This document shows positions 1 to 32,000 of a stretch of 32,000 nucleotides of DNA, piece by piece. The stretch is from Candidatus Saccharimonadota bacterium (GTDB lineage: Archaea; Nanohalarchaeota; Nanosalinia; Nanosalinales; Nanosalinaceae). A program made the position numbers and the translations under genes. The stretch's first letter is position 1. The number at the start of each line of letters is the position of its first letter. The stretch is from the NCBI RefSeq assembly GCF_047555085.1, contig NZ_CP180230.1:960001-992000 (forward strand). The letters run 5' to 3'. The notes under the pieces were generated by a model that did no database searches, was not told where the DNA came from, and saw nothing but the letters and a program-made list of their open reading frames with translations.

Positions 1-84
1 AGGCCTTTTCCCAGTGTTTTCTTTTTCATTTGTAAGAGTTGTCTACAGGACGATAACTGTTTAACGTGTGCTGCACGCCACATA

Positions 85-94
85 TTTTTATATA
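85..94 (+). promoter_or_regulatory. TATA-like box (TTTTTATATA) upstream of the histone gene
   Basis: AT-rich TTTTTATATA lies 53 nt upstream of ATG 147 in otherwise mixed sequence. The position fits an archaeal TATA box plus a short SD-bearing leader. Confidence 0.4.
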
Positions 95-129
95 GGAGTA
101 GAACGTAAATTATCAGTACAAGCCTTAAA

Positions 130-137
130 GGAGGTGA
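130..137 (+). promoter_or_regulatory. Shine-Dalgarno-like GGAGGTGA
   Basis: GGAGGTGA lies 9 nt upstream of ATG 147 and is complementary to the conserved 16S rRNA 3' end. Confidence 0.55.
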
Positions 138-146
138 CACTATACA

Positions 147-344
147 ATGGCAGAACTACCACTAGCACCTGTAAAGAGAATTATCAAGCAGGCCGGCGCT
201 TCAAGAGTTTCAGAGGACGCAGTAGAAGAACTAAGAGATGAACTAGAAGCACACGCAGAGGATCGTGCAAGAGAAGCAAAGCAGTACGCTGAGCACGCCG
301 GCAGAAAGACAGTACAGGCAGCAGACGTTAAGACTTCAAGATAA
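147..344 (+). CDS. archaeal histone (HMf-type histone fold), 65 aa
   Basis: The translation MAELPLAPVKRIIKQAGASRVSEDAVEEL...EHAGRKTVQAADV follows the archaeal histone pattern (P-x-AP-x-x-RIIK, RVS-x-DA, HAGRKTV). The size is typical and an SD lies upstream. Confidence 0.9.
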   Translation: MAELPLAPVKRIIKQAGASRVSEDAVEELRDELEAHAEDRAREAKQYAEHAGRKTVQAADVKTSR

Positions 345-356
345 AGTTTTTTCTTG
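345..356 (+). terminator. oligo-T tract after the histone stop
   Basis: A T6 run (347..352) follows TAA 342..344. Archaeal terminators are typically oligo-T tracts. Confidence 0.3.
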
Positions 357-416
357 AAGAGGCCTGTACGTTTCATACTTCCTTTTTTTATTTCTCACCG
401 ATCAGATTGTTCTACA

Positions 417-1160
417 GTGAAACTGGAAAACTCATTTATCCTGTTCCCTGGCATTGGCCAGAAGACCGAGAAAAAACTCTGGAAAGACAATATACGGCAC
501 TGGGACCATCTTGAAGACTCTTCTAAGCACAATAAAGTTCAGGAACACATGGAGAAGGCCCGCAAAAATTTGAAAGTGAATAACTCAATTTACTTCGACG
601 ACAAACTCCCAAACAAAAGCCTGTGGAGAGCCTACAAAAATTTTGAGAAAGATGTCACGTTCTTCGATATCGAGACAACAGGCCTGAAGCCGGAAAGGAA
701 CAAGACCACGACAGTAAGTTTCTACCGTAACGGCGAATCAAAGACATTAATCAGAGGCCAGAATCTGACTCGTGAAAAACTTGAAAACGAGATTTTCGAG
801 TCATCTATGCTTGTCTCATTTAACGGGAAGCGTTTCGATGCTCCTTTCCTGGAGAAAAACTTTGACTTGAATATCGAGACGCCGCACATCGATTTGATGT
901 ATCCGTGTAAACGACTTGGATACAGTGGAGGCCTGAAGAAGATCGAGAAAGACTTGAAGATTCAGCGAGAACTGGAGGATATCGATGGAAGGGAGGCGAT
1001 CAAGCTGTGGAAGAAGTACGAGAACAACGGTGACGAAGAGGCCTTGAACAAGCTTGTCAGGTACAATCAGTACGACGCCGAGAATCTTCAGGACTTGCTT
1101 GAGATCGTCCGTGAAAAATTGATCGAGAAAGTGGCTGACAGGCCTGAAAGATTCGAGTAG
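417..1160 (+). CDS. RNase H-like / DEDD 3'-5' exonuclease domain protein (YprB-like) with N-terminal helix-hairpin-helix
   Basis: Motifs seen are FFDIETTGL (Exo I), SFNGKRFDAPFL (Exo II) and YNQYDAENL (Exo III-like), plus an N-terminal GIGQKTEKKLW HhH. The track ORF starts at TTG 354. I prefer the in-frame GTG 417 because the preceding 21 codons are hydrophobic/basic and atypical. Confidence 0.75.
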   Translation: MKLENSFILFPGIGQKTEKKLWKDNIRHWDHLEDSSKHNKVQEHMEKARKNLKVNNSIYFDDKLPNKSLWRAYKNFEKDVTFFDIETTGLKPERNKTTTVSFYRNGESKTLIRGQNLTREKLENEIFESSMLVSFNGKRFDAPFLEKNFDLNIETPHIDLMYPCKRLGYSGGLKKIEKDLKIQRELEDIDGREAIKLWKKYENNGDEEALNKLVRYNQYDAENLQDLLEIVREKLIEKVADRPERFE

Positions 1161-1254
1161 AGGCCTGCAAAGGTTTTCCGGATACTTTTTCCTTTTCCGC
1201 TGTGCATGTTTGGAGGGAAAACTTAAAAGGGTCGACTTCTAATTAGAGGTTGAA

Positions 1255-1712
1255 GAAAATGGCCTTGGTTAATACTATTTCACCCGCTGGAAACATGTGG
1301 ATGGATCTGGTGAGGTGCACCCATACCGAAAACAAGGCCAAGGCTTTCTCCATTATTAATTATCTGGCAGAGTAAAGTGGGATGAAGTCTTGGCCGACAT
1401 TGACTGGCCAAGTACCGACCGCGAATACTCAAAAAACCAAATTCTTGACAGCCTCTCGTTCTACCTCTATGGAACATGGAATGAGGGCTTGGGCAGTGTG
1501 CTGCTTGCAAGGTGGTGCACTGTCCTTGGCACCTATCTAGTCTATCTGTAAAAGATACGATACGTACAACGATCAGAGGTGCAATACACACAATGGATGC
1601 GAACACACGCCACTTCGAAACCGAGCTTCAGGCTCAGCACGAAGAGACCACTCGACAGACTACCGATGTCTCACCTGAAGCAAACGTTGTCCCGGCAACA
1701 GCACTTTAAACC
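1255..1712 (+). ncRNA. candidate structured RNA, identity unresolved (RNase P RNA or SRP RNA are guesses only)
   Basis: The stretch is about 450 nt, visibly more GC-rich than other spacers, with no acidic ORF. Perfect helices are GGCCUUG 1261-1267 / CAAGGCC 1334-1340, CUUGGCC 1389-1395 / GGCCAAG 1406-1412, and GCUUCAGG 1624-1631 / CCUGAAGC 1674-1681 enclosing GAGAC/GUCUC. The + strand has no T-run of 5 or more, while the - strand has T6. A TATA-like AAACTTAAAAG sits at about 1219-1231. Boundaries and strand are tentative. Confidence 0.3.
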
Positions 1713-1750
1713 AGAAAAACAAGAATAAAGAAGATTACAGGCCTCCAGAA

Positions 1751-2230: not shown

Positions 2231-2254
2231 AAAAACAGATTAAAACAAAGAAGG

Positions 2255-2432: not shown

Positions 2433-2584
2433 AGGTACAATTGAGGCCTCCCTTCTTTTAAACACGTATAGTTTTACCTCAAAGTACTCAAGTAATTTAG
2501 AGGCCTGAAAAAGTTACAGACTCTGTTGATCCCGGGAATGAGGCCTCTGTGAAGTATTTCAAATTTTTCTTCCCATCTTCAGGT

Positions 2585-3103
2585 ATGAGCTATGAAGATC
2601 TCTCACGCGAAGAACTTGTAGAGGCCCTGAACGAGATGGAGAAAAAATTTGACGAGGAGAGATGTGAGAGGGAAAAATTCGAGGAACTGGCCAAAAAGAC
2701 AAAGGCCGACTTCGAGAACTACAGGAAGAAACAGGACGAAAGAAAGGAAAGATGGCAGAAAGAGGCCAAACAAGAATTGGCGGAAGATCTGATCGAGGTC
2801 ATGGACAATCTTGAAAGAGCTTTGATGGCGGCAGACGAGGAGACAGCTGTCGTCCAGGGCGTGGAGATGGTGAACGAACAATTGTACAGCAAACTGAACA
2901 GTGAAGGCCTAGAGGTCATCGAGACAGGGGAAAAATTCGATCCAGAAGTCCATAAAGCCGTTGATACCAGAGAGCACGAGGAACACGAGCCGAAGACGAT
3001 ACTTGAACAGAAGAGGAAAGGCTACCGTTTCGATGGAAAAGTTCTGAGGGCTGCAGAAGTAGTTGTATCCGAGAGGCCTAGAGAATCCGAAGATGAATCC
3101 TGA
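2585..3103 (+). CDS. grpE: GrpE nucleotide exchange factor
   Basis: It has a coiled-coil N-terminus, then FENYRKK...DLIEVMDNLERAL...FDPEVHKAV...KGYRFDGKVLRAAEVVVS, the typical GrpE pattern, and sits upstream of dnaK. I chose ATG 2585 over the track's GTG 2549. Confidence 0.9.
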   Translation: MSYEDLSREELVEALNEMEKKFDEERCEREKFEELAKKTKADFENYRKKQDERKERWQKEAKQELAEDLIEVMDNLERALMAADEETAVVQGVEMVNEQLYSKLNSEGLEVIETGEKFDPEVHKAVDTREHEEHEPKTILEQKRKGYRFDGKVLRAAEVVVSERPRESEDES

Positions 3104-3356
3104 GTATATACATTCCAGACTGGAGGAGAAAGCAGAGGCCTTTGAAGGAGAGGAACTCAGAAGCCAGGTTGAGTCAGTTCTTGATGAGGAAGATGTGAGC
3201 TACAGAAGAACCAGCGTTGGAGGCCTTGAACAGCCGAGACACAAAGAATATCTTTACGAGCTAGGCGGTGATGAAGAAAGTTTTGAGCTACAGCTGATAA
3301 CTTATGACGGCCGTCCTGGTAGAGACGATGGCTCAGTTGAAATAAGGGGAAAGTAG
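3093..3356 (+). CDS. small acidic hypothetical protein, 87 aa
   Basis: ATG 3093 overlaps the grpE stop (ATGAATCCTGA), suggesting translational coupling. The composition is acidic and I recognise no family. Confidence 0.5.
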   Translation: MNPEYIHSRLEEKAEAFEGEELRSQVESVLDEEDVSYRRTSVGGLEQPRHKEYLYELGGDEESFELQLITYDGRPGRDDGSVEIRGK

Positions 3357-3402
3357 AGTGCAGGAAATTTGATTTTTTAACTCGGATGAGTAACTTGATG
3401 TT

Positions 3403-4320
3403 GTGAGGAAGAGAGCTGAGAACGATCCTCTGGAGATCGATCCTGGATGGGAGGATCTTCTGGAGGGCCTGGAGAGCAGAAATTCTTTGACGTGTGCCCA
3501 GTTGATAGTCTACGGAGTTGATACGAATTATCCTCTCGGGCCTGGTACTATCGTCAGGAAGGCCTTCAAGTCGGATGGGAAGCTTCCTGTGGAACACAGT
3601 CTGGAAAAGATCTTCGAGGAGATGAGTTCAGAGTTCGGAAACAAAGTCACTCAGCGTGTGGAAAAAATACTTGAGAAAAATCTTGATCTGAACTCGCTGA
3701 AAGTCCTGAAGTTTGACATGGAAGTCCTGAACGAGCTGCGTTACGGAACTGTAGACGGCGTATCGGGGAAATGGAAGCGGATGACTTCCGGAGGCACCTG
3801 GACGATATACACAGATCGTCAGGACTCGAAAGTTCTGAAGGCCTCTCATACTGCAGAAAATTCCTGGGAGACTGCTATACTTGCTTTGACTCATGAAGAA
3901 GTTGCTGAGAGGATCGAGCAGCTTCCTGAAAAGTATAGACTGGGAGCTCCGAAAAATCGCAGCGTGGCAGTCGCTGAAGTCGATGGGGAAAAATTCGCCG
4001 TAACAACTATGGAATACGAGAAAAACTACGTTGAGCCCGGAAGTAACAGGGAAGGGCTCGAAGAGGCCTGTAAAGTTCTGAAGCGGATGTTTGAATCCGG
4101 AGAGCTTCCGGCACACGAGTTTGATTACGATAGAGAAGGCCTGAAAAGGAGGAATATGGCATATAGAGATGGAAAGTTTATCGCACTGGATCTGTGCGAT
4201 AAATCTGTTCTCGGTAATGAAGAGTTCCTGCGTGAAAACGGCATCATAGAAAAAGCACAGGAACTCGGATTCTCGAATGGCAGCGGTTTCCTAGGAGGCC
4301 TCTTCGGAAAGTTTCGATAG
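3403..4320 (+). CDS. hypothetical protein, 305 aa
   Basis: A long GTG-initiated ORF between grpE and dnaK with the window's typical charged composition. I recognise no motif. Confidence 0.65.
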   Translation: MRKRAENDPLEIDPGWEDLLEGLESRNSLTCAQLIVYGVDTNYPLGPGTIVRKAFKSDGKLPVEHSLEKIFEEMSSEFGNKVTQRVEKILEKNLDLNSLKVLKFDMEVLNELRYGTVDGVSGKWKRMTSGGTWTIYTDRQDSKVLKASHTAENSWETAILALTHEEVAERIEQLPEKYRLGAPKNRSVAVAEVDGEKFAVTTMEYEKNYVEPGSNREGLEEACKVLKRMFESGELPAHEFDYDREGLKRRNMAYRDGKFIALDLCDKSVLGNEEFLRENGIIEKAQELGFSNGSGFLGGLFGKFR

Positions 4321-4344
4321 TTTCTGAAGTTAGTTTCACATTGC

Positions 4345-4359
4345 TTTAAAATTTTTATT
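4345..4359 (+). promoter_or_regulatory. TATA-like TTTAAAATTTTTATT upstream of dnaK
   Basis: An AT-rich box lies 38-52 nt upstream of ATG 4397, with AGGTG at 4382-4386 as an SD-like element. Confidence 0.35.
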
Positions 4360-4396
4360 CACGTAAACAAAAACATAATCTAGGTGTAACTGAAAA

Positions 4397-6316
4397 ATGA
4401 GCAAGATCATCGGAATCGACTTGGGAACAACAAGAAGCGCAATGGCAACCATCGAAGATGGAGAACCAAAAATAATCGAAAACAAGGAAGGAGAACGTGT
4501 AACCCCTTCCGTAGTAGGTTTTGACGACGGTGAAAGGCTTGTCGGAAAGCCTGCGAAAAACCAGCTACTTACAAACGAGGAAAACACTGTAAAGTCGATA
4601 AAGAGACACATGGGAGAGGACTACGAAGTCAATCTTGACGGAGAGGATTACACTCCACAGGAAATTTCTTCCATGATTCTGCAGAAGCTGAAAAACGATG
4701 CTGAAGACAAGCTTGGAGATGATGTTGAGAAAGCTGTGATTACTGTTCCAGCGCATTTCGATGATACTCAGAGACAGGCCACAAAAGATGCTGCGGAGAT
4801 CGCAGGACTTGAAGCTGAAAGAATTCTGAACGAGCCGACTGCAGCAGCTCTTGCATACGGATTAGATGATGACAGTGAGAAAACTGTACTTGTATACGAC
4901 TTCGGAGGAGGAACCTTCGACGTCACCGTCCTCGAGATGGGAGACGGGATCTATGAAGTCCAGAGTACAGAAGGAGACAACGATCTCGGAGGAGACGATT
5001 TTGACGAGAAGATTGTAGAGTACCTTCTCGAAGAGTTCGAGGACGAAAACGGAGTCGACCTCCGTGAAAGCGACGAAGCCATGCAGCGTATCCGTGAGAA
5101 CGCTGAGGAGGCGAAGAAAGAGCTTTCATCGAGAGAATCCACCAAGATCAACATCCCATTTATCTACCAGGAGAACGGCGAGACATACAACCTGGATCAG
5201 GAGTTAACCAGATCCAAGTTTGAGGATCTTGTAGAAGAGTTGATCCAGAGGACGACCGATCCGACAAAGAAGGCTATGAACGACGCCGGTGTCGACTCCG
5301 GAGACCTTGATGAAGTCATCCTTGTAGGAGGTACGACACGAGTCCCTGCTGTCAGAGAACATGTGCAAGCTATCACAGGACTCCAGCCGGATAAAAGTGT
5401 AAGTCCGGATGAAGCAGTTGCCCTGGGCGCATCAATCCAGGCAGGAAGCATGGAAGGTGAAATGGATGATATCCTGCTACTTGACGTAGCACCTCTCAGC
5501 CTGGGAGTAGAAGTCAAGGGAGGCCTCACAGAGACCCTAATTGAAGAAAACACGACAATCCCTGCAGAGGAATCGAAAACTTTCACTACAGCCCAGGACA
5601 ACCAGTCTGTTGTGACTGTACATGTAGTCCAGGGAGAACGTGAGATGGCATCAGATAACAAGTCTCTGGGACAGTTCAATCTTGAAGGCCTGCCTCCAGC
5701 ACCTGCCGGACAGCCACAGATCGAAGTAACTTTCGAGATCGATTCCGATGGAATCCTACAGGTATCCGCAGAGGAAAAACAGTCTGGGGAAGAGGCCTCT
5801 ATCACTATCGAGGACCAGGCACGTCTCGACGACGAAGAAATCGAAGAGATGAAGGAAGAAGCAGAGAAACACGCCGAGGAAGACAAGAAACGTAGAGAGT
5901 TTGTCGAGGCGAAGAACAAGGCCGATCAGATCATCTCTCAGGGCCGCGATCAGCTTGAAGAACACGGCGACAAGGTCGATGAAAGTCTTGTTGAAGGGAT
6001 CGAGATGCAGCTGGATGAGCTGGAAGATTTCCGTAAAGATGTAGAGATGGAGGATAAGGAAGAGCTTGAAGAGAAAGTTGCTGAAGTTGAGGAAAAGCTT
6101 CAGGAGATAGGTCAGGAAATCTACGGCGACCAGGAAGGCCCGGGAGGAATGGGTGGTATGGGTGCCGAAGGATTCGATCCATCCAACATGAGCGAGGAAG
6201 ACCTGAAACAGGCCGCACAGAACATGAACATGGGAGGCGGAAACTCAGGCGACGACGTTGTCGATGCAGACTTCGAGGAAGTCGACACAGACAAAGACGA
6301 GGAGAAAGAGGAGTAA
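4397..6316 (+). CDS. dnaK: Hsp70 chaperone DnaK
   Basis: Signatures seen are [38 protein letters not shown] and [12 protein letters not shown], plus a C-terminal [11 protein letters not shown] tail as in bacterial DnaK. Confidence 0.97.
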
Positions 6317-6447
6317 TGATCCTCTCCTCCCCTCAAAATTCCGAAAGCCGTCGAAGTGCGGCTTCATATGATGAAACTCTCTAGGTGAGTTTCTGTGCGA
6401 AAATCTAAGATTTTCAGCACTCTCAGAAAACACACAGGTGTTTTCTA

Positions 6448-7524
6448 ATGAGTAAAGAATACTACGAACTTCTGGGAGTCAGTGAAGATGCAAGCCAAGA
6501 CGAAATCAAGAAGGCCTACAGGAAGAAGGCGAAGAAGTACCATCCGGATTCTAACAAGGATACTGCCGATGAGGAGAAGTTCAAGAAGATAAACAAGGCC
6601 TATGATGTTCTCTCCGATGAGGATAAACGGAAGAAATACGATAGATTTGGAAAACAGGGCGTACAAGGAAGTTCATCCAGAGGCCAGAGACGTGCCGCCA
6701 ACAATTTCCAGGACATTTTCGAGCAGATCTTTGGCGGAGGCGGAAGAAGAGGAAGAAGTAGAGAGGCCCAGGGAGAAAATTTGAAGGTTCAGACGACTGT
6801 TAGTCTTGAAGAGGCCTATAATGGCGTTGAGAAAACTTTCAAGGTGTCCAGAAAATCTGAATGTGAGGCCTGTAGCGGAAGCGGTGCGGAGAATGGTAAT
6901 ACTTCTACTTGTTCTAACTGCAATGGTAGAGGGAAAGTTGAACAGGTCCAGAGGACGCCTCTTGGCAGAGCACGGCAGGTCGTGGAGTGTCCGGAATGCA
7001 GCGGTACAGGAGATATTCCAGAAGAGGCCTGTACTGAGTGCAGTGGTTCAGGGATTACTGAGAAAGAGGAGACTATCACTGTAGATATTCCAGAAGGTGT
7101 GAAAGATGGTCAGCGGCTTAGAGTCCGTGGAAAAGGCCATACTGCACGGAACGGTAATTCAGGTGATCTATATGTTTTTGTGAGTGTAGAGCCTCACGAT
7201 TCTCTGGAGCGGCGTGACTCCGATCTCTACACTACTGTGAAGATTGGTGTTGGGGATGCTGCTCTTGGTACAAAAATTACTGTACCTCATCCGGACTCTG
7301 AGATTGAGGTAGATGTGCCTTCCGGTACGCAGCCGGGCCAGGTGATGCGTGTCTCCGGCAAGGGTATGCCGAGCGGCTGGGGTTCAGGAGATCTGTATGT
7401 TAAAGTGGATGTTGATATCCCTAGTGATCTTAGTGTGGAGCAGAGAGAAGTTATGGAGCAGCTCAGGGAGACTGAGAGTAGTGAGAAGAACTTCTTTGAA
7501 ACAGTTAAGGACTTCATATCCTGA
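6448..7524 (+). CDS. dnaJ: Hsp40 co-chaperone DnaJ (type I)
   Basis: It has a J domain with YHPD, a G-rich linker and four CxxCxGxG repeats ([32 protein letters not shown]). Confidence 0.95.
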
Positions 7525-13033: not shown

Positions 13034-13135
13034 GTGGGCAAGAGAATGAAGAACAAGAAACTCGGAGCTTTTCTGATAGGCCTGTTTGTCACATCCCTAA
13101 TGGTGTTCACAGGCACAAGCGCAAGCCTTCAGGCC
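13034..13135 (+). other. Sec-type signal peptide of the giant protein
   Basis: MGKRMKNKKLGAFLIGLFVTSLMVFTGTSASLQA|SD has a basic n-region, a hydrophobic core and an A-x-A-like site. Confidence 0.7.
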
Positions 13136-22100: not shown

Positions 22101-22954
22101 CGGCTCAGTGGACAGGATATCTGCGTGAGAACCAGGATGAGAACATGTTCGAGCTGTACGACAAGTTCGGTCTCAGCCGTTCCGATGCAAGAGGATTCGA
22201 TGGAAACATCAGAGCTGTAGAACCGGGGGAAGAGATCGATATCACACCTTACCTGGAGCAGGATGAGGACGGACAGATCATAGTCTTCTCCCTGCACAAG
22301 CTTGACTCAAAGAATATCGACGAGTTCGCAAACAAGACTATCCAGCAGATTTTCGATGCCAACCTGCCTGAGAGAAACGGCCTTGAGACAGTAATCGTAT
22401 ACGACGAGGTACACCGACTTCTGGAGAAGTTCGGTGGAAACGGCGAAGGAATCAAACAGCTTGAAAGAGGAGCCAGAGAGTTCCGTAAATGGGGAGTCGG
22501 AATGGTCCTATTGAGCCAGGTAATCTCCGACTTCTCCGGAGAGATCCGTGCAAACATCGGTACGACAGTACAGATGCGTACACAGTACGACGACGATCTT
22601 GAAAGAATAAAGAACAAGTTCGGCATCGATACAGTCAAATCCATTGCAAAGGCTGAAGTCGGAAGCGGAATGCTTCAGAGCTCGGACTACAACCATGGAA
22701 GGCCTTACTTCATCGATTTCAGGCCTCTGCTCCACAGCCCACACAGATTGAGTGACGAGGAGCTGGACAAGTACGAACAGTACAACAAACGTATCGACAG
22801 CATCGAGGAGAAAGTCAACGAGCTGGAGGATCAGGGAGAGGAAGTATACGAGTACCGCAGCGAGCTCAAGTTGACGAAGAGAAACTTGAAGAAGGGAAGT
22901 TTCTCACTTGTCGATACCTACATCGATGAGCTGGAAGAAAAGCTTGATATGTAA
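13034..22954 (+). CDS. giant (3306 aa) surface protein fused through one TM helix to a cytoplasmic FtsK/HerA-superfamily ATPase
   Basis: An uninterrupted 9.9-kb ORF with consistent acidic, S/T/N-rich composition. It has a signal peptide and many Ig-like, CARDB-like and CarboxypepD_reg-like repeats. A single TM helix is followed by KRKKELQKKR, then Walker A AGATGSGKT, Walker B VIVYDEVH and GAREFRKWGVGMVLLSQ. The start is GTG 13034 or ATG 13046. Confidence 0.92.
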   Translation: MGKRMKNKKLGAFLIGLFVTSLMVFTGTSASLQASDICDAESGDTCTISSSYALNGDTLNYSGTVNFESGASLTGGGDIYADEFTGLNNLDLENGDTGNFYLCERTGGVTCRPESDSGVSLDTSYELDSSRFLFRQINDNWSSGYVNWTDDLSRTSDLNSSFSDMEVNYTVSGLTENLDFKIFQEGSQLTTQDSGINFSHIINRSFTDGTSSGLTTGNSLRLKASSTSVADIASNHNGDETSSPNNYPFRNRFSPTNTAYINGVWLASGYETDMSYNITNIDTGRKVVSGTHFHSGGFPTTDQISYDFQLSEFETVKLNSSDTYEVAWSADDSQGYYGGSIPYTDSGIEWTYSNREAQDGNAWNVGVNIIDGYQSSGAYTSQPLDAGEKIDWNSSYVDISEPESTSINTSFAENTSNSGTWTYYDSIKNVPDSRYIKYKIEMSTEDSSITPVVDSIDISFNPNGQDGVIEVSQNITGENKFEVLETTPPSYTSQTQGKNIVGAQNYNTLSSTIQDSGSGLRKAVLATNETGSMENKTSYTQNFNGEFSEQTASFDWKNSSFQGDFAEIEWQIWFSDIAGNWQKTSVKQFKVDGIPPEISNLDYQNTVDVDEGSTQITFDVTESETDLNSVIIRENSTGGLENTTLTSPYSYTLSTNTPSEVDFTVFAEDTKENVEQSSGTVSFQNISITKSLNASVVNSSEAFEISGSAVLRPYGTALTSDLDLWADIEGWTNLGSISPVDGAFSRVETIKKPGTHEIKLNTTQNGIYGVSEGSIDVLLDINTVSTVFDSTGNSHVDIDTSNKNLNLSANISRPVDGSVQTVIANVSMPDGTYREFELGTNEGHTWYREIDTDQEFGSLQGEYSVTFSAETTEGLGSNLPAKSFYIENITVDSELSDSVVSIGEDSEISGNVILRPYGERLDGGSVEASKGSFSSDFPVNGTGYYSGSVFFDEPGNKTVNLQYVDENGIKGVNSTEISVLNLSARITDVSTDNGNLKVFRDSDSEPDVSFTDNVSADTENPMPVREVDLIYDRPEGWQGTYSSSVGNLSPGEYGSVNPVFDIEAGAELGVKNISISTSTQEDIQDTDNVSVEVWTRSESEYVNLDYNSLNSINRNLELYSIYANVTDTVNGEPLENIDVQLISQDESIDLTETSNSTGGVNFTLDLSQLSTGEYGVSMRTFTNEQEFVETSETVSSNLVDIAIQGVMQKGTQNSIDPVYRSNDSVQPTTGISGIIEDSTGNPLEGATVTGEINGEGLGEKQTDSNGYYGFSYNPPDNIQPGNYAAELEASKTDFKTFNFNRTVEVRGALNLNNNLEKNVLGRGLSHNVVASVTNEYGENVPGNVSWFLNSTKVGSGKNTEIDIPESFDRGFYTLEASTDRDFFDDDSDSVDVNVYGQASVEMTPEDFTIRSGNTVTFEASVTDDNSSQSISDYPVTFEVNGQTYERTTNNSGIATFDWTSTTGEYDVEASINDNASLNYNATDSNDVTEVFVGDKLYLDTFRFSENVINRFPETPDQTRIRLNLTRTSNTIERVPVSNEEVSFTVNGSETVSCTTGEDGTCGGSLWYNPTDAVTPGNLTVQASTDRSNWIDVSDSRKLAVRGLMITSLESPADGTNLARGDSVQLEAVTDTFSGGIVERDMTWTLDGTEIASGYTTSWDIPVTQDTGVKTLTATGDGEFFDSSSDSIDITILGQASVNLLEPDNSSTIGYSQNRNVRCEVVSGLDSRIQGYPVEFVENSSGVMETFAQSVTENTGSGLVAEASWSPPEKITSVEMGCRIDTNETLGYLKDQGLSTRIYETEDDSPPEISNLQVPDRVDPGEVADIEFNASDEIGIDRIDVQVLDPVFNELGSDDINIVNTTGTGYRVEVQTQSSTQGTYRVDLEIFDPSGNSKELRRTFDAQPGGNLNIDNKNIDAGEITFTEGLTEEVGVSFQKEENDGANLKINVSSSVLDFNTSEYVCGDINPGNYCNRTFEVTVPPGTSPTGSSPIYASFRAVWDKTDGTDETASIGDFTEVNVARNPQFSEETGEKIITGLSDSSTAINTSDINNAFRANSSGNVPVQDYEVIYHEENLPEEWLTVYNGERSSIDPGQVVDTDVGINITDGTGPGNYTGLFEFRSSNYGNITRVIAINLDARPEFEAPEKISASAVRGSSGSLGSLKLNSTGNVDLSLEAAATNNAGVNSTCAKNIGPATTPVTLEKQSSKVIDIQYNFSDVTLNSNSCTPKIEFTPEKPEYDTSQITEFSISLLDFTLDASADEVSAMPGDEAGLNFTANIGDSPRTTNLDYTVFVGGKEASITDSSITGDGFSLNYTVPDVEDARSHDVRLEVYDEENGVSQSQVFRDYVSVPDVTPPDFGEVDIDGVNPGEDQDIRVPVIDNSIDGVQSISMTLNGENFSESYSLVEDGPEWITTVENISEGIYTANFTAVDPSGLESTASDRFRVSESASFNGSFTSSAGDVNSDATITLSDSSTGRTVSSKVGEDGSYSLDIKTGTYDLNVAFEGQKITMNNTLINSSNMSFRAEKLSEAQTSGLTPSSQTSSRITGIGVDTSLEPESSEITFNYSGLDLPDGYQISELKVARCGEYDYSNLRCNTDSFEVLDLEPLDVNKARETITVDTDGFSSYTLFAPSEDTGQDQNNNQEQDSGGGGGGGGSFPEDALNDINDSVSETKEKVENLSGRLNDTTETPGAELGSSSINAELRPGESMTVSLSVANTANDSQTFIFDTNDVVRDYIDVTDSVTLAPGESRDVILNISSPADELAGSYSGTLSVESDEINTEIPVNVQILPPQNKLLDMSLDPVFSTVRPGEALQIETTFSNQGYARNVDVTAKIDVIDPDTNASIASISETVAVGTTLNRVFEIDIPRDTELKSYAIRGSARYTNLDVARVATAASSIEIDMPFWSRTFFGFTYQNIGLGFLLLLLVSSTGLGLYHYKRKKELQKKRYMENIDLDTIPTGGNNQAYLGQLAEVGTRTFLNLDDLTTHALIAGATGSGKTVTGQVMVEEALENGANVIVLDPTAQWTGYLRENQDENMFELYDKFGLSRSDARGFDGNIRAVEPGEEIDITPYLEQDEDGQIIVFSLHKLDSKNIDEFANKTIQQIFDANLPERNGLETVIVYDEVHRLLEKFGGNGEGIKQLERGAREFRKWGVGMVLLSQVISDFSGEIRANIGTTVQMRTQYDDDLERIKNKFGIDTVKSIAKAEVGSGMLQSSDYNHGRPYFIDFRPLLHSPHRLSDEELDKYEQYNKRIDSIEEKVNELEDQGEEVYEYRSELKLTKRNLKKGSFSLVDTYIDELEEKLDM
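20975..20998 (+). other. Gly8 hinge or linker in the giant protein
   Basis: Eight consecutive GGN codons (QDS-GGGGGGGG-SFPED) are preceded by the low-complexity QDQNNNQEQD. Confidence 0.8.
21785..21841 (+). other. single transmembrane helix of the giant protein
   Basis: IGLGFLLLLLVSSTGLGLY is followed by HYKRKKELQKKR. By the positive-inside rule the C-terminal domain is cytoplasmic. Confidence 0.8.
21880..22740 (+). other. FtsK/HerA-superfamily (DUF87/HerA-like) P-loop ATPase domain
   Basis: HALIAGATGSGKTVTGQ...NVIVLDPTAQWTGY (Walker A at 22010-22033), ETVIVYDEVHRLL (Walker B at 22391-22414) and GAREFRKWGVGMVLLSQVISDF (22469-22519) resemble the HerA/DUF87 arrangement. Confidence 0.75.
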
Positions 22955-22974: not shown

Positions 22975-24114
22975 ATGGGAGTACTGGGCCTATTTTCAAA
23001 CAGCAGTAACGAAGAAACAGTTTCTGATGCAGTATCTGAGGCCCAGGATCAGGTAGAGGACCTGGACGACGGAAAAGAGGAATGGGATCCCAACGAGAAC
23101 GAGCAGGAGGAAGACCTGAAAGGAGACTCCGAACTTGTCGCAGAGCTGCAAAAGGCAAAAGCCCAGATCGAAGGGATCAAACAACAGCAGGAAAGACTTT
23201 CTTCCAAAAATGATCACCTTGAGGAAAACATCGGAGGAATCCGTGAAAACATCAAGGAGATACAGAGTCAGGCCCAGGAATCCATCTCGAAGGCGGAAAA
23301 GGCCTCGGACATGGTGGAGGAACTGGAGCCCGAAGAAATCGAGAAAAAACTCTCAAAGCAACACTCCGAACACGAAGAGCTTCGAAGCAAGATAGAGGAG
23401 GAACGAGAGAAAAGAAGTGAACTAAGAAATCAGATCAGAGAGTTACGTGGAAAGATCGATGAGATCGGCTCGATTGAAAGCCTCAAGGAGATGAAAGACG
23501 ACGTCGAGTCGAAACTTGAAACAATAAGCAAACTCGAGGACAAGACCGAAGTACAGGAAAACAAAGTAGAGGATATCTTCCAGGAACTCCAGTCAAAGGC
23601 CTCAAAGATAGAGAAAATGGAGGACAAACAGGGAGAACTGGATAACAGATTCACAGATGTAAGGAAACGTTTCGATGATCTCCAGATCAAGTATGAAGGC
23701 CTTCCCTCGGAGGACGATTTCAACGATACTGTCGAGGAACTGGAAGATGAGATAGACGAGATAAATGAAGTTGTCGCAGCAGTAGAAAATGCATTCGATG
23801 AGATCGAAAAGTTACAGGAAAAGTCTATAGTCACAGAAGATGATCTGGATGAAAAGGCAGATCTCAATACTGTCAAAAACATCGAGGAGAATCTTCAGAA
23901 CGATATAGAAAACTCGAGGCCTGAAGTCTCACACAGTGACATTGAGGACATACAACAGGAGCTGAATCAAGTTCAGAACAGAATCAATCAACTGGAACAG
24001 TCAGACACCCAGGATACCCATGGGGAAGTGACCCGGAAAGAGTTCGATAAACTGCGCGAAGACGTAACCTATCTATCAGAAGCAGTTGTCAAACTCACAA
24101 AGAACAACAATTAA
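22975..24114 (+). CDS. acidic coiled-coil protein, 379 aa
   Basis: The ATG lies 20 nt after the giant gene's stop. The protein is almost entirely E/K/Q/L/I-rich heptad-like sequence (e.g. ELRSKIEEEREKRSELRNQIRELRGKIDEIG). I see no enzymatic motif. Confidence 0.8.
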   Translation: MGVLGLFSNSSNEETVSDAVSEAQDQVEDLDDGKEEWDPNENEQEEDLKGDSELVAELQKAKAQIEGIKQQQERLSSKNDHLEENIGGIRENIKEIQSQAQESISKAEKASDMVEELEPEEIEKKLSKQHSEHEELRSKIEEEREKRSELRNQIRELRGKIDEIGSIESLKEMKDDVESKLETISKLEDKTEVQENKVEDIFQELQSKASKIEKMEDKQGELDNRFTDVRKRFDDLQIKYEGLPSEDDFNDTVEELEDEIDEINEVVAAVENAFDEIEKLQEKSIVTEDDLDEKADLNTVKNIEENLQNDIENSRPEVSHSDIEDIQQELNQVQNRINQLEQSDTQDTHGEVTRKEFDKLREDVTYLSEAVVKLTKNNN

Positions 24115-26925: not shown

Positions 26926-27020
26926 TTTCATAGGCCTCTCAAAAGGCCTTTCTACATATCTTCTAAATTCTGTATTTTTTAGTCATCAAGGATTTAAGCT
27001 TTAGAACTGAAGTGCTTAAT

Positions 27021-28029: not shown

Positions 28030-28989
28030 ATGACAGACAATGACAACGATGTAGAACTTGAAGACATCAAAGGTGTAGGTGCCAAGACAGCAGAAAAGCT
28101 GAGAGAATCAGGTTACGAGGAACTGATGTCAATAGCCACTATGAGCTCGGGGCAACTGGGCGAAGTGGCAGACCTCGGTGATAAAAAGGCACAGGGCATC
28201 ATCACAGAAGCAAGGAAGGAGCTCGACATCGGATTTGACAGCGCCAAGGACCGCTACGACGACCGCCAGGAGATGAAGAGAATTACAACAGGATGTGACG
28301 CATTCGATGATATCCTCGGTGGCGGAGTGGAGACACAGGCCATCACAGAAGTCTATGGAGAGTACGGATCCGCAAAGACACAGCTTGCACACCAGCTTTC
28401 ATGCAACGTACAGCTTCCGGAAGAGGAAGGAGGCCTCGGGAAAGGCGTAGTATACATCGACACAGAGGACACTTTCATCCCTGACAGGATCGAACAGATG
28501 GCAGAAGCTAATGGACAGGACGTCGAAGAAGTTCTTGACAATATTCACGTTGCAAGGGCCTTTAACTCGGATCACCAGATGCTTCTGACGGATCAGGCTC
28601 AGGAAATCTGTCAGAACAACGACATCGGATTGATTGTAGTCGATTCACTGACTGCACAGTTCCGTTCTGACTATGTTGGGCGTGGAGAGCTTGCTCCTCG
28701 ACAGCAGAAGCTGAACAAGCACATGACAACACTGCTGAGACTGGCGAACGCACACAACATCGCAGTGCTTGTAACAAATCAGGTCATGTCCAATCCGGAT
28801 CAGATGTTTGGAGATCCAACGAAAGCTATCGGAGGCCACATCGTGGCACACAACTCCGCAGTCAGACTCTACCTGAGAAAGTCCAAGAAGGACAAGAGGA
28901 TCGCACGGCTTGTCGACTCTCCTTACATGCCTGAAGGAGAGGCCGTCTTCAAGGTAGCCGACAGAGGAATCGTACCTGAAGATTTCTAA
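28030..28989 (+). CDS. radA: RadA recombinase
   Basis: It has an N-terminal HhH ([18 protein letters not shown]), Walker [19 protein letters not shown], Walker [13 protein letters not shown] and NQV...GGHIVAH, at the typical 319 aa. Confidence 0.93.
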
Positions 28990-29023: not shown

Positions 29024-29689
29024 TTACAGAGAAAGCAGATTCAGTTCATGATCGATAACTTCCTCTGCCTCTCGAATATCTTCAACAGATCTGAATTCTT
29101 TATCGGCACGAGACATAGTTGAACCTATATAGAAAACTTTTCCATCAGCTCCGAAGTAAACTTCATCCTCAGCATCTCTACCTGTGATAACATGCATTTC
29201 AAGACTCGACCTGTGGACCACATCTTCATCTAGATCATACTTTACCTTTAGGCCTCTACTATCAACTTTCTCCTCCACCAAATCCTGGAACTCTCCTACA
29301 GGCCCCATGTACTCGATGTATGAAGTCTCATACGTTTCTTCACTAGAATCTTCCTCAAGCGTTCTCTCTGCAATATTCTCAAATTTTTCTCTAGAGGTCT
29401 CATTTATCAACTTGTTTTTCCTGCGTGATTCACGGGCCAGCTCGTGCATATTGCCGATACTTGACTCCGAGTAGTCGATAACTTCCTGAACTTTCTCATC
29501 TTTGAGGCCTGTATCAGCAGATATCTCCTCAACAGAGCTCCCTCCCTCATAAAAAGCGGAGAAAACAGTATCAGCAGATACCGTGGCAAGAATATCCGAA
29601 GTAGTCTCATTTTCGTCCTTCAAAACAAGGTCGTCTCCAAGCCCTCTCTTGATGTGTTTCCACCCCTTGACAGGCCTCAATTCATCCAT
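29024..29689 (-). CDS. acidic hypothetical protein with HTH-like segment, 221 aa
   Basis: VFSAFYEGGSSVEEISADTGLKDEKVQEVIDY resembles a sigma-r4/LuxR-type HTH. It is a distant paralog of 30533..31210. Confidence 0.6.
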   Translation of the reverse strand: MDELRPVKGWKHIKRGLGDDLVLKDENETTSDILATVSADTVFSAFYEGGSSVEEISADTGLKDEKVQEVIDYSESSIGNMHELARESRRKNKLINETSREKFENIAERTLEEDSSEETYETSYIEYMGPVGEFQDLVEEKVDSRGLKVKYDLDEDVVHRSSLEMHVITGRDAEDEVYFGADGKVFYIGSTMSRADKEFRSVEDIREAEEVIDHELNLLSL

Positions 29690-29793
29690 GGAAAATCATT
29701 GTAGATAAAGACTGAAGTAAGATGCGAAAAATCTCCTTGCAATTTTCACCACTTTTCAGTAGAAATATTAAGACTTGTCCCCTTTAACTCTCT

Positions 29794-30531
29794 ATGGCTC
29801 CTCCAAGACAGGAAGTTATCGCAGAACTTGAAGGCTTCTCAACAGGATACAGTGAACGTCTGGATACTTCAGCTAATGACATGGCCTCGGGCATAGCAGC
29901 AGTAGCAGTGTATCTGGAAGGCGGAGGAAGAAAAAATATTGCAGAGGCCTACAGGATCGGAAGCCTGATAGGACTGAATACACGGATAGTCGATGACATA
30001 CTGGATGGAGAGGAAGTTGACGCAGTAACCGATAAACAGGCCTTTCTGAACAATTACATCGACAGTATACACGGAAAAGACGTTTCTCCAGAGGAGAATG
30101 AATCAGAAAATATCGCCTATGAAGCCGGCAGATTACTTGGAAGAGAACTTGATACCGAGATAGTAAGTGGTTACATGCAGGACTTCGTGGATATCGCAGT
30201 CGAAGAGGACAAATCCAGTAAAGAAGGATACAAAAGCTACAGCAGAGGTATAAGCGCCTCAATAGGAGAATTAGTGGGAATGGCACTGACAGATCTTGAT
30301 GACTTCGAGGCCGATGCAGACATACTCAACTTTGCGTACGACTTCGCATACCTTGGACAGGTAGCAGATGATAAACTGGACGCCGATACAGGCCTTGGAG
30401 ACGATATAGATGAGTTCTACAGAGAAGCACAGGAAAGAATTTCAAGACATGGAGCCACCGGAAAGTTCATGGAGAAGGCCTCAAAAGTTTATCCACAGCT
30501 ATACCGAGGCATGAAGGCCCTGAGAAAGTAG
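29794..30531 (+). CDS. helical DDxxD...DDxxD protein, possibly class I isoprenoid synthase-like, 245 aa
   Basis: RIVDDILDGE (residues about 67-71) and LGQVADDKLDA (about 193-197) are spaced about 126 aa apart, like the FARM and SARM of trans-prenyltransferases. The typical RRG after the first motif is missing and the proteome is Asp-rich, so chance is possible. Confidence 0.35.
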   Translation: MAPPRQEVIAELEGFSTGYSERLDTSANDMASGIAAVAVYLEGGGRKNIAEAYRIGSLIGLNTRIVDDILDGEEVDAVTDKQAFLNNYIDSIHGKDVSPEENESENIAYEAGRLLGRELDTEIVSGYMQDFVDIAVEEDKSSKEGYKSYSRGISASIGELVGMALTDLDDFEADADILNFAYDFAYLGQVADDKLDADTGLGDDIDEFYREAQERISRHGATGKFMEKASKVYPQLYRGMKALRK

Positions 30532-30532
30532 T

Positions 30533-31210
30533 CTACTGTATGCCGAAAACAGCGTTCCTGTACATCTCACCTGCTCTATTATTAAACTCTTCTGCATCTA
30601 CCTGTAGAACTTTCCCTCTCTCATCGTCGACAGAGTAAGAGACAAATCCCATATCAGGGCCTATATCTTCGCTCCAGCCGAGATAGACTCCTAATTCGCT
30701 GCCTTTCATCTCCCATTCTATATGGATTTCCTCAATATTTTCTGCAACATAGCTTTCAGGCCTGTAAACAATATCTTCGGGAGTAATCGCATCTTTCTCT
30801 GCCAGTTCATCCAGAGTTTTTTCCACGAAATCCGGCGCATCTATATCCCGATCATTCTGCTCCAGTTCTTCAGGATCCAAGAGATTGTCCTCGTAAACTC
30901 TGGACGCCTCCTCGAAGTCTTCTCCGTTTCTTACAGATTCTGCCACATTGGAAATTCTTTCATCAACGGAGAAATTTTGCACACGATCCGCTAAATCTCT
31001 GTATACATCGCCGTTCTCATGCAGATAATTCATCGTTCTGTGGACATCAGAGGCCTCTACTCCAAGAGTTTCAGCGACATCCTCCGAGTCCAGGCCTCTA
31101 ACTTCATAATGCTCAAACACCTGGATCAACGGCAGAAAATTTTCTTCATCAATCTGCAGAAAAACATCTCCATCCTCCTCAACTATCGCGTCAAACTTTT
31201 CCCCGCTCAT
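30533..31210 (-). CDS. acidic hypothetical protein with HTH-like segment, 225 aa
   Basis: VFEHYEVRGLDSEDVAETLGVEASDVHRTMNYL aligns position by position with the HTH-like segment of 29024..29689. Confidence 0.6.
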   Translation of the reverse strand: MSGEKFDAIVEEDGDVFLQIDEENFLPLIQVFEHYEVRGLDSEDVAETLGVEASDVHRTMNYLHENGDVYRDLADRVQNFSVDERISNVAESVRNGEDFEEASRVYEDNLLDPEELEQNDRDIDAPDFVEKTLDELAEKDAITPEDIVYRPESYVAENIEEIHIEWEMKGSELGVYLGWSEDIGPDMGFVSYSVDDERGKVLQVDAEEFNNRAGEMYRNAVFGIQ

Positions 31211-31327
31211 CTAACTCGAACTTGAGATCCTAAAGTTAAAAATTTGGAGAGAACAGGCCTCTGAATAGAAAAATAGATGTAGAACGTGCGTATATGGAAA
31301 ATTAAATGAGAAGGATATGAGAATTTT

Positions 31328-31585
31328 TTACAGGCCTTCGGATACAATCACAAAGTCTCCGATGGACTTGACTGCGGAGAAAGGTACGATCGTACGGCCC
31401 TGAGAGTCTTCCTGCAGGTGCTCCTCGTTTAGATGGTCTGTGGTCTGGCTTACCAGGATGTTCATCAGTTCGCCAGTATCTGCGACGAATGATACGTCTT
31501 CAACATTTCCGTACTTCTTTCCGTGTTCTTCTGATACGATTGTCTTTCCGATTATTTCAGTTCCTCTCGGGTGATCTTCAGCCAT
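31328..31585 (-). CDS. PRC-barrel domain protein
   Basis: IIGKTIVSEEHGKKYGNVEDVSFVADTGELMNILV...IVPFSAVKSIGDFVIV is the typical small archaeal PRC-barrel pattern. Confidence 0.8.
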   Translation of the reverse strand: MAEDHPRGTEIIGKTIVSEEHGKKYGNVEDVSFVADTGELMNILVSQTTDHLNEEHLQEDSQGRTIVPFSAVKSIGDFVIVSEGL

Positions 31586-31636
31586 TTTTTGTGCACCTGT
31601 ATTTACTTATTGATGGATGCAACATTAAAAACTTGT

Positions 31637-32000
31637 ATGGCGCGAGTCTTCTCCGCGGTCGATATAGAAGATGAAGACGTTCTCGATCAACTGGAAAAAA
31701 CACAGGAGAGGCTGAATCTTGGATTCAACACGGTGCCACGCGAAAAAATGCATATCACTCTGGAGTTCTTCGAAGATGTGAACGAAAAACAGATAGACAA
31801 GATAAAGCGATCGATCAGGAACATCCAGATAGACTCTTTTCAGGCCTCTATCAACGGAGTTGGCGCTTTTCCTTCAGAGGATTACATGCGAGTTGTATGG
31901 GCGGGCCTCAAAGCTCCAGAGATTTTCCGGCTGAAGAAACAGGTTTCAACACACGGCGTCACAAGCCAGGATCAGAACAGCTTCACGCCACACATAACGC
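31637..32000 (+). CDS. thpR: RNA 2',3'-cyclic phosphodiesterase (ThpR/LigT, 2H family), 5' part; runs off the window
   Basis: My own translation from ATG 31637 is MARVFSAVDIEDE...REKMHITLEFFEDV...INGVGAFPSEDYMRVVWAGL...FTPHIT. Both H-x-T-x motifs of the 2H phosphoesterases are present, and there is no stop before the window ends. Confidence 0.8.
   Translation, partial: MARVFSAVDIEDEDVLDQLEKTQERLNLGFNTVPREKMHITLEFFEDVNEKQIDKIKRSIRNIQIDSFQASINGVGAFPSEDYMRVVWAGLKAPEIFRLKKQVSTHGVTSQDQNSFTPHIT

Follow-up and report, generated by a model that had tools for sequence, protein, structure and literature searches.

The closest described counterparts of the element considered here are the cyanobacterial palindrome HIP1 (highly iterated palindrome 1, GCGATCGC) and the uptake sequences of bacteria. 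HIP1 is found in 15- to 300-fold excess both within and between genes, with conserved sites, non-random spacing and cognate methylases (PMC4390886, PMC5861425), and it has recently been linked to methylation-dependent transformation and to type IV secretion (T4SS) genes (bioRxiv 10.64898/2026.06.24.733823). Uptake sequences occur at even intervals, preferentially in genes of low conservation, and inflate the tripeptides that they encode (PMC2817400, PMC1939737). The recognition sites of restriction-modification (R-M) systems are normally avoided, the rare cases of over-representation being about 1.4-1.5x (PMC4687349). Here we analyse the palindromic hexamer AGGCCT in a window of 32,000 bp (contig NZ_CP180230.1, positions 960,001 to 992,000) from the chromosome of a nanohaloarchaeon (DPANN archaea), the lineage of which is in what we call the 'AGGCCT-on' state. 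A search of the searchable literature gave no earlier mention of abundant AGGCCT, be it in Nanohaloarchaeota, DPANN or archaea in general.

The window contains exactly 124 copies of AGGCCT, one per 258 bp (3.88/kb), which makes it by far the commonest hexamer. An earlier note on the same DNA had estimated about 124 copies and an approximately 20-fold excess, and both figures stand, the copies being at the positions it gave. The expected number is 6.1 from base composition (order 0; the G+C content is 45.5%, slightly higher than the 43-45% formerly judged by eye) and 6.4 from the order 1 Markov model, while 100 dinucleotide shuffles yield 6.43±2.45 copies with a maximum of 13. With increasing order the expectation grows to 21.6 (order 2), 53.8 (order 3) and 116.7 (order 4); the order-4 null is circular and hence uninformative, because the motif accounts for almost all copies of the pentamers AGGCC and GGCCT, and the maximal-order null, whose sub-words are dominated by AGGCCT, was dropped. 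In genes, 108 copies are observed against 16.2±3.7 (maximum 31) after a synonymous-codon shuffle within each gene and 7.4±2.7 after whole-codon permutation; the codon-preserving shuffle, named beforehand as a possible refutation of the excess, thus does not refute it. Among the 203 GGCC tetramers, 124 (61%) lie in the A-GGCC-T context, and each of the other 15 NGGCCN contexts has 0-18 copies.

As had been claimed, the word occurs in all reading frames and between genes. It is read as AGG-CCT 20 times, as xxA-GGC-CTx 44 times and as xAG-GCC-Txx 44 times, and 16 sites are situated in 4.15 kb of noncoding DNA (GC 40.6%; the coding/noncoding split follows our own gene model), where 0.6-0.8 would be expected from its own composition. 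The noncoding and coding densities, 3.85/kb and 3.88/kb, are equal; this equality had been stated earlier on the basis of about 13 sites in about 2.9 kb of spacers.

We call permissive a position where the protein sequence allows AGGCCT by synonymous choice. In the window, 107 of 138 permissive positions (78%) carry AGGCCT, compared to about 14 (about 10%) expected from codon usage. The choice of synonymous codons, whose examination the earlier note had proposed, is shifted in each context: the word is present at 20 of 23 Arg-Pro, 44 of 66 x-Gly-Leu and 43 of 49 [Lys/Gln/Glu]-Ala-[codon starting with T] positions. The strength of the bias corresponds to an odds ratio of about 31 in coding DNA (ln odds 3.4), and the noncoding excess, in the same terms, to ln 3.1. 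These values match, and one and the same DNA-level force acts in both compartments.

We assign virtually no probability to an excess that is a by-product of composition or of the usage of codons or amino acids, that stems from a dispersed repeat or that is an artefact of assembly or sequencing. The order-4 Markov value approaches the observed count, circular as it is, and the window begins on a site; on the other hand, the dinucleotide, codon-permutation and synonymous-codon shuffles all fall short by 7- to 20-fold, the noncoding enrichment is equal, sequence conservation does not extend past the hexamer, the same signature recurs in independent metagenome-assembled genomes and metagenome assemblies from different projects, and the sites do not coincide with contig ends. 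The opening of the window on AGGCCT (positions 1-6) has a chance of about 0.4% at this density. In other 'on' assemblies the contig ends do not coincide with AGGCCT sites, so there is no hint of modified DNA, and the start of the window on a site is probably a coincidence.

When the sites are oriented by the sense strand, the flanking counts are G50 C27 A23 T8 at position -1 and C41 G27 T30 A10 at position +1, that is, the preferences are weak (G at -1, C at +1) and reverse-complement symmetric. Such symmetry is predicted for a duplex-DNA recognition site, while an RNA signal would not produce it. The earlier note had also described longer palindromes, and their coordinates are correct, AGAGGCCTCT being found at one more position, 16997; their significance is not confirmed, since 32 palindromic extensions to 8 bp are observed against 37.6 expected from the flank marginals. 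Thus the hexamer is the unit and the extensions are by-products; an 8-12 bp palindrome as the true unit is ruled out by the same numbers. The suggested preference for gene ends disappears as well, the sites being no more frequent near the start or stop of genes than elsewhere (all P>0.17). Around the sites we observed no longer repeat unit, as repeat families have nothing in common but the hexamer and a short codon-level context. A dispersed repeat element (of the repetitive extragenic palindrome, miniature inverted-repeat or CRISPR-like kind) or a known RNA family was rejected as a candidate, given no conservation past the core and no Rfam match. The proposal that the cause lies at the DNA level and not in peptides or codons is therefore upheld by the use of all frames, the equal noncoding density, the symmetric flanks, the saturation of approximately 78% and the ln odds of the two compartments.

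The distribution of the trait among relatives was considered at RadA loci, of which 75 are Nanohaloarchaeal (including 22 from reference genomes and 52 from metagenomes, the metagenome loci having been retrieved with a clade-specific probe, the RadA peptide NPDQMFGDP) and 58 are from other archaea. In the Nanohaloarchaeal loci the saturation index is bimodal. The 'on' loci have 54-100% of the permissive positions occupied and comprise the window (79%), L003, L004, L013, L016, L210, L212, L216, L217, L221, L224, L226, L231 and L236, among others, the highest values stemming from loci with at most 13 permissive positions. For the window, L003, L004, L013, L016, L216, L221, L226 and L236, among others, the value is 60-84%. 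Intermediate values of 29-55% are seen in L006, L211, L222, L223 and L244, and most other Nanohaloarchaeal loci are at the background of 0-18%. In the 58 loci from other archaea the trait is absent, the saturation being at or below chance and at most about 10%. The comparison with relatives that the earlier note had called for thus shows an excess that is lineage-specific, patchy on the tree and absent from the other archaea tested.

On the RadA tree there is one sizeable, mostly 'on' clade with decayed members, where L005 with 0.5 sites/kb adjoins L236 with 4.5/kb, and L006 and L211 have about 1.2/kb. A second 'on' pair, the window and L222, is nested among the 'off' loci L001, L002, L203, L215, L235, L238 and L245, and a third pair, made up of L016 (strain M3_22, whose genome is complete) and L223, is situated in a distant clade. 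Hence the 'on' state occupies at least three separate places on the tree and has undergone at least three gains or many losses. One more locus, L248, left off the tree because its RadA is partial (160 aa), is 'off' (5% saturation) despite a RadA segment 95% identical to that of the window. Contrasting on/off sisters have RadA protein identity of 94-96% and third-position identity of 0.55-0.66; thus the state changes within roughly genus-level divergence.

In on/on pairs, 12 of 18 sites are in common, compared to a hexamer background of about 14%, and at 95% nucleotide identity all 12 of 12 are. In the pair of the window and L222 only 1 of 8 window sites is in common, so individual sites turn over fast. 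The sites of L006 are mostly a subset of those of L013 (4 of 6), and the remaining L013 sites correspond in L006 to scattered one-off and two-off variants, with many GC-to-AT changes, which points to decay along all paths after the state had been lost. The single site in radA (28431) is AGGCCT in the 'on' window, L003, L004, L013 and L205, and also in L005, while other relatives have CGGCCT, CGGACT or AGGTCT.

The sites are spaced more evenly than at random. In the window, the counts per 1-kb bin have an index of dispersion of 0.38 (P<0.0005) and those per 2-kb bin one of 0.27, and the same tendency is observed in most 'on' loci, L004 being an exception. Under-dispersion is also seen for the permissive positions of the window as such (0.52), but not for those of 'off' genomes (0.84-2.0), and the occupied ones are spread more evenly than an equal number drawn at random (P=0.048). 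In addition, the use of a permissive position depends on the nearest other site: with that site 6-20 bp away the position is used in 35% of cases, with 20-40 bp between them in 62%, and in the bins at 40 bp and beyond in 73-84% (11 'on' loci, Fisher P=4e-5, no overlapping positions involved). Such interference of neighbouring sites is not expected of independent mutational events; it would follow from a benefit that depends on density or from the footprint of a protein.

One possibility is an array of binding sites for an abundant chromosomal protein (nucleoid-associated, involved in replication or priming, condensin-loading or similar), an AGGCCT-recognising dimer, with selection maintaining a site every few hundred bp. 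In this case one would expect the under-dispersion on the scale of 1-2 kb, the suppressed use within about 40 bp of another site, as fits a footprint or diminishing returns, the symmetric duplex flanks and the equal coding and noncoding densities, and a role in nucleoid structure has been proposed for HIP1 (PMC5861425). We nevertheless regard such an array as rather improbable: an essential chromosome organiser should not repeatedly switch off at 94-96% RadA identity with no replacement word, the turnover of sites is quick, as seen in the comparison with L222, and no candidate protein was identified.

The way in which the word accumulates was addressed using pooled DNA, 105 kb 'on' (the window, L003, L004, L013, L016 and L006) and 151 kb 'off' Nanohaloarchaeal, with 9-32 kb sampled per genome. 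The pooled 'on' DNA contains 325 copies of AGGCCT against 24.4 expected (13x). The words one transition away are not depleted in it, observed over expected (O/E) being 1.0 for AGACCT/AGGTCT and 0.88 for AAGCCT/AGGCTT. One-off variants in general occur at 0.5-2.5x, similarly to 'off' DNA, those altered at the outer positions (1.5-2.5x) being barely above it, and GGCC without the A...T flanks is not enriched. The sole one-off variant clearly depleted in 'on' DNA is AGGGCT/AGCCCT (O/E 0.53 compared to 1.12 in 'off'), which none of the mechanisms considered predicts.

A hexamer mutation model with 4096 states gives different expectations for two kinds of bias. If only the T:G-to-C:G paths are boosted, the excess reaches a ceiling of 3.7x (one cytosine) or 8x (both), and the neighbour words are driven to about zero. 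Vice versa, if the bias covers all 18 paths into and out of the word, the excess is 20x and the neighbours remain unchanged at 1.0. The observed pattern, involving the whole word with undepleted neighbours, hence fits only a fixation bias, that is, selection or biased transmission, and not a known repair bias. Accumulation of AGGCCT is best read as a density-dependent fixation bias on the whole duplex hexamer with a scaled strength of about 3-3.5.

The first of these two cases corresponds to methylation combined with short-patch repair as a purely mutational drive, in which a 5-methylcytosine (m5C) methyltransferase marks AGGCCT or GGCC and Vsr- or Mig-type T:G repair restores C:G. It has precedents, namely, the excess of CCWGG in E. 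coli with Dcm/Vsr and the archaeal M.MthTI (GGCC) accompanied by the Mig.Mth T/G glycosylase. Moreover, Dcm-like methyltransferases are present in Nanohaloarchaea (PMC11001535), and a repair-based model has been put forward for HIP1 (PMC4390886). Against it, the ceiling remains well short of the observed 13-20x, the near-total loss of the transition neighbours that it requires is not seen, even spacing and close-site interference are not expected of independent repair events, and orthologous positions in relatives show every kind of change, not transitions alone. We consider this drive very unlikely. The strong mutational bias that the earlier note had offered as an alternative is, in its Vsr-type form, rejected (a ceiling of about 4-8x, neighbours not depleted, nearby sites interfering), along with codon usage, peptide motifs, repeat elements and artefacts.

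The force has also left an imprint on proteins. Per 1000 codons there are 14.9 permissive contexts in 'on' loci (consistently over 11 loci), 10.3 in 'off' relatives from the same clade and 8.4 in another, less closely related 'off' clade; thus, the protein sequences of 'on' lineages have been shifted so that they offer 45% more permissive contexts than those of 'off' relatives. In the window, the Arg-Pro dipeptide occurs 23 times against 13.2 expected. The strongly conserved DnaK and RadA genes offer few permissive positions and have the fewest sites (Table 1; the mean is 3.9/kb), which indicates that amino-acid constraint overrides the motif pressure.

An imprint of this kind would also be produced by an uptake or transfer drive without methylation, in which an import or cell-to-cell machinery prefers fragments with AGGCCT and homologous recombination spreads the word (molecular drive, as proposed for the uptake signal sequences, USS, and DNA uptake sequences, DUS), a change or loss of receptor specificity switching the trait off. 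Consistent with such a drive, all mutational paths are biased with neighbour words undepleted, the 45% inflation of peptide contexts is comparable to the roughly 2-fold tripeptide inflation of USS, DnaK and RadA, the two most conserved genes analysed, are about the lowest in density among site-bearing genes, as in USS (PMC2817400), and close sites give diminishing returns within an even spacing such as USS also have (PMC1939737). In addition, the trait is specific to certain lineages, a giant surface protein with a VirB4/HerA/TrwB-like ATPase is encoded in the window, and HIP1 itself has lately been tied to T4SS and transformation (bioRxiv 10.64898/2026.06.24.733823). The sharp 6-bp palindrome with no graded excess of one-off variants is unlike USS and DUS (PMC1939737), natural transformation is not known from Nanohaloarchaea, 'off' lineages have no replacement word, and lineage-specific open reading frames (ORFs) of the window have normal density, while a build-up of the USS type would need long residence in the genome. 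Overall, this drive seems unlikely to us, though by no means negligible.

The explanation that we favour, at about even confidence, is an 'AGGCCT-on' lineage with a duplex-DNA fixation bias on the whole hexamer, where the likeliest determinant is a StuI-type methyltransferase or a module derived from an R-M system. The force acts on double-stranded DNA and on the hexamer as a whole, its target being neither codons nor peptides nor RNA, and keeps about 4 AGGCCT per kb. Its benefit is density-dependent, a permissive position being less used with another site within 40 bp, and the state is bimodal, gained and lost between close species, with decay along all paths once lost. From the six-position sharpness and palindromic symmetry we infer a dimeric module with the specificity of a type II enzyme, and from the patchy phylogeny a dispensable, mobile gene; the determinant would then be a sequence-specific DNA protein that works as a dimer, is dispensable and moves horizontally, most likely an AGGCCT-specific (StuI-type) DNA methyltransferase or the recognition module of an R-M system. 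By analogy with what is now proposed for HIP1, the marked sites may act as a signal of 'self' when DNA is recombined or acquired or when the chromosome is handled.

An enzyme system with the required specificity exists. Alcanivorax borkumensis has a genome of about 3.1 Mb, in which AGGCCT would occur at about 0.5/kb. In strain SK2 the word is the target of an AGGCCT-specific R-M system and is methylated on both strands at AgGCcT, with 1674 genomic copies (PMC12128166). As for the window, there is no methyltransferase or nuclease among its genes. The M.HaeIII probe against a database of 5.8 billion proteins gave as its best 120 matches only close ones (at least 73% identity), the named ones being bacterial, so that nanohaloarchaeal enzymes were beyond reach.

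Several observations weigh against the methyltransferase-centred explanation. Methyltransferase signatures (motif patterns; tblastn with M.HaeIII) were absent from 778 kb of Nanohaloarchaeal DNA, all of it from one chromosomal neighbourhood, that of RadA, and no nuclease or other candidate determinant was found there either. The one published nanohaloarchaeal methylome obtained by single-molecule real-time (SMRT) sequencing, that of SVXNc, which may be 'on' or 'off', contains N4-methylcytosine (m4C) at GDGcHC only (PMC10266531, PMC11001535); its authors describe two Dcm-like methyltransferases and one detected motif (PMC11001535), and the run reports N6-methyladenine (m6A) and m4C only, so that m5C would not show (PMC10266531, PMC11001535). 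Strain M3_22 is 'on', yet the cultured Ca. Nanohalovita haloferacivicina BNXNv, considered congeneric with it, is reported to have only a type III Mod/Res system. Per-nucleotide divergence within sites is slightly below that of the surroundings, mostly non-significantly, and given such weak conservation the sites common to 'on' pairs could reflect parallel saturation of conserved amino-acid contexts. A search of 'off' genomes for a replacement word (palindromic 6-/8-mers; any 6-8-mer) revealed nothing comparable, no palindromic 6-/8-mer with at least 8 copies other than AGGCCT exceeding about 8x (O/E 8.1) in any Nanohaloarchaeal locus; cyanobacteria lacking HIP1, unlike the 'off' Nanohaloarchaea, have alternate HIPs. 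Finally, the hexamer mutation model treats sites as independent and uses HKY-type rates.

A more specific version, which we treat as a long shot, is that AGGCCT is a genome-wide 'self' mark of an ectosymbiont feeding on host nucleic acids. A mobile recognition module, either a methyltransferase or a binding protein, would read the word, so that the own chromosome is spared or preferentially recombined while the host DNA is consumed. If so, the mark would yield a density-dependent benefit, saturate the genome and vanish with the loss of the module, and it would be the first archaeal HIP; the 'on' strain M3_22, through its cultured congener, would then offer a tractable system in which to address what such palindromes do, a question now 30 years old.

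The assignment of the window to a nanohaloarchaeon agrees with its archaeal gene set, which includes RadA, an RPA-like protein with a DUF2240 domain, NikR and a bacterial-type GrpE-DnaK-DnaJ operon. By RadA, the nearest relatives are Nanohaloarchaeota, with identity up to 90% for reference genomes and, in hypersaline metagenomes, 96.5% over the full length and 99% across a 169-aa fragment. Looked up as exact proteins, RadA, DnaK and glyoxalase of the window had no entry in the contig collection. The coordinates of the sites and other features are collected in Table 1.

Table 1. AGGCCT sites, longer palindromes and genes of the window (first positions of the hexamer are given for the sites).
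Feature	Position	Strand	Remarks
AGGCCT sites, 1-8 kb	1, 360, 680, 929, 1039, 1140, 1161, 1739, 1956, 2444, 2501, 2541, 2905, 3074, 3136, 3221, 3560, 3839, 4064, 4137, 4296, 5521, 5686, 5793, 6512, 6596, 6812, 6866, 7025		
AGGCCT sites, 8-16 kb	8173, 8405, 8727, 8813, 9077, 9419, 9458, 9836, 10738, 10855, 11011, 11105, 11194, 11326, 11935, 12197, 12652, 12838, 13078, 13131, 13288, 14587, 14947, 15135, 15167, 15470, 15652, 15776, 15813		
AGGCCT sites, 16-24 kb	16130, 16798, 16896, 16999, 17223, 17286, 17436, 17775, 17836, 18114, 18301, 18315, 18406, 18802, 19135, 19372, 19442, 19840, 19920, 20329, 20632, 20731, 21143, 21458, 21468, 21787, 21826, 21927, 22059, 22700, 22721, 23300, 23597, 23697, 23917		
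AGGCCT sites, 24-32 kb	24446, 24490, 24845, 25202, 25401, 25484, 25665, 25797, 26030, 26131, 26162, 26932, 26944, 27119, 27553, 27602, 28015, 28431, 29250, 29505, 29672, 29945, 30038, 30390, 30476, 30758, 31051, 31092, 31255, 31332, 31842		
AGAGGCCTCT	5791, 8171, 15811, 16997, 19918, 31049		
GAGAGGCCTCTC	16996-17007		12-mer, longest palindromic extension
GrpE-DnaK-DnaJ operon	2549-7524	+	bacterial type
ORF between grpE and dnaK	3063-3356		no detectable homology
ORF between grpE and dnaK	3403-4320		no detectable homology; no family match
DnaK	4397-6316	+	3 sites, 1.6/kb; second-lowest density among site-bearing genes
Giant ORF, surface protein	13034-22954	+	3306 aa; 42 AGGCCT sites (4.2/kb), all three frames
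SMC/Rad50-like ORF	22975-24114		379 aa, coiled coil; downstream of giant ORF
Two intergenic AGGCCT, 12 bp apart	26932-26949		upstream of RPA gene; among the 16 noncoding sites
RadA	28030-28989		1 site, 1.0/kb
Single AGGCCT site of RadA	28431-28436	+	conserved x-Gly-Leu position
ORF	29024-29689		no family match; weak/partial match to L002
ORF	29794-30531		no family match; weak/partial match to L009
ORF	30533-31210		no family match; faint winged-helix signal

The giant ORF contains CarboxypepD_reg, MG2 and NPCBM_assoc Ig-like domains and a C-terminal DUF87/HerA/TrwB (VirB4/TraG-like) ATPase. Its site density is typical, and thus the force treats a long, fast-evolving gene like other regions. Cultured nanohaloarchaea encode giant surface proteins of the SPEARE type (PMC10266531), which this ORF resembles. 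The presence of a GrpE-DnaK-DnaJ operon of the bacterial type in a DPANN archaeon, with two ORFs inserted between grpE and dnaK, is a side observation. The four ORFs with no family match (221-305 aa) have AGGCCT at the normal density of 4.4-5.5/kb, and those without a weak match in Table 1 have no similarity across the 22 reference-genome Nanohaloarchaeal loci compared. We found no tRNAs and no Rfam matches in the window.

Other palindromes of the window behave differently. Alongside the AGGCCT excess several are avoided, namely CTAG (38 copies against 129 expected), CGCG (10 against 43), GCGC (23 against 45) and CTTAAG (1 against 9.5), and GGGCCC, TCGCGA, AGCGCT, GCATGC, ACGCGT, GCGCGC and CGCGCG are absent. 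CTAG is a methylated motif in Haloferax, the host genus of cultured nanohaloarchaea (PMC11001535). GATATC (31 against 9.2) and TCCGGA (23 against 7.0) are in excess of about 3.3x, far below that of AGGCCT, and may be driven by codon pairs; GATATC is raised in several other Nanohaloarchaeal loci too (L008, L022). Among 'off' loci, ACCGGT reaches 5-8x in L002, L020 and L214, of which the latter two are 98.7% identical; counting ACCGGT or AACCGGT, the excess there is 5-10x with 8-11 copies, approximately 0.6-0.9/kb (8.7 kb in L002, about 15 kb in each of the others). The excess may be due to codon pairs, or the word may be an alternate iterated palindrome of weak strength. Viral contigs scanned for three AGGCCT in a cluster showed mostly tandem arrays, and modest dispersed enrichment in two IMG/VR contigs alone, L157 (10.8 kb, GC 52.5%) and L085 (6.7 kb), with 2.0 sites/kb, O/E of about 5-8 and saturation of 31-38%; these could be replicons from AGGCCT-'on' cells.

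The function of HIP1 has been debated for three decades, and uptake sequences are known in two bacterial families; AGGCCT adds an independent archaeal case with a measurable imprint on protein sequences. As the state differs between close relatives, these natural contrasts open the question of which gene tracks it to comparative genomics, and a cultured relative brings simple experiments within reach. The combined argument from the ceiling of single-path repair and the interference of neighbouring sites applies to any over-represented word. In practice, for Nanohaloarchaeota AGGCCT skews the statistics of codon pairs and dipeptides as well as k-mer-based binning and methods that rely on restriction.

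In comparison with known systems, AGGCCT appears as an archaeal counterpart of HIP1 and of bacterial uptake sequences, with a different word that is denser and near-saturating. Like HIP1, it is a short GC-rich palindrome in at least 15-fold excess, found in all frames and between genes, with non-random spacing and lineage-specific presence or absence, and explained by neither peptide nor RNA function; its one-off variants also concentrate at the outer positions (PMC4390886, PMC5861425). Unlike HIP1, it is a hexamer and not an octamer, occurs at about 4/kb and not at about 1/kb, uses approximately 78% of synonymous opportunities, resides in an archaeal DPANN ectosymbiont, and flips its state within genus-level divergence; the periodicity of HIP1 is on the scale of 10-90 kb, and the evenness of AGGCCT was measured at 1-2 kb in a 32-kb window.

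With USS of Pasteurellaceae and DUS of Neisseriaceae it shares the location at weakly constrained positions, the inflation of encoded peptides, the even spacing and a drive on the whole motif rather than on a single mutational path. A common trait would also be the thousands of copies per genome, the AGGCCT counts being for only 9-32 kb per genome. USS and DUS are, unlike AGGCCT, 9-12 nt long and non-palindromic, and their mismatched forms are in graded excess. The StuI-type R-M system of A. borkumensis SK2 has the same word and a sharp, six-position specificity of the type II kind, although R-M sites are normally avoided and an excess of about 20x is the opposite of the R-M signature.

T:G repair raises a methylated palindrome in the case of Dcm/Vsr (CCWGG) and of M.MthTI (GGCC) with the Mig.Mth glycosylase in Methanothermobacter, the latter being an archaeal precedent with a GGCC core; the footprint of Dcm/Vsr, a modest excess with depleted deamination products, was tested for and is absent at AGGCCT. 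Chi, read by RecBCD, is an oriented 8-mer occurring about once per 4.5 kb and skewed with the direction of replication. Like AGGCCT it is an over-represented short word, and it marks 'self' DNA for a DNA-processing machine, whereas AGGCCT is a palindrome found once per 260 bp, and no analogous archaeal nuclease is known to read it. Without filing AGGCCT as a proven member of either group, we suggest by analogy that it works in the manner of HIP1 and the uptake sequences.

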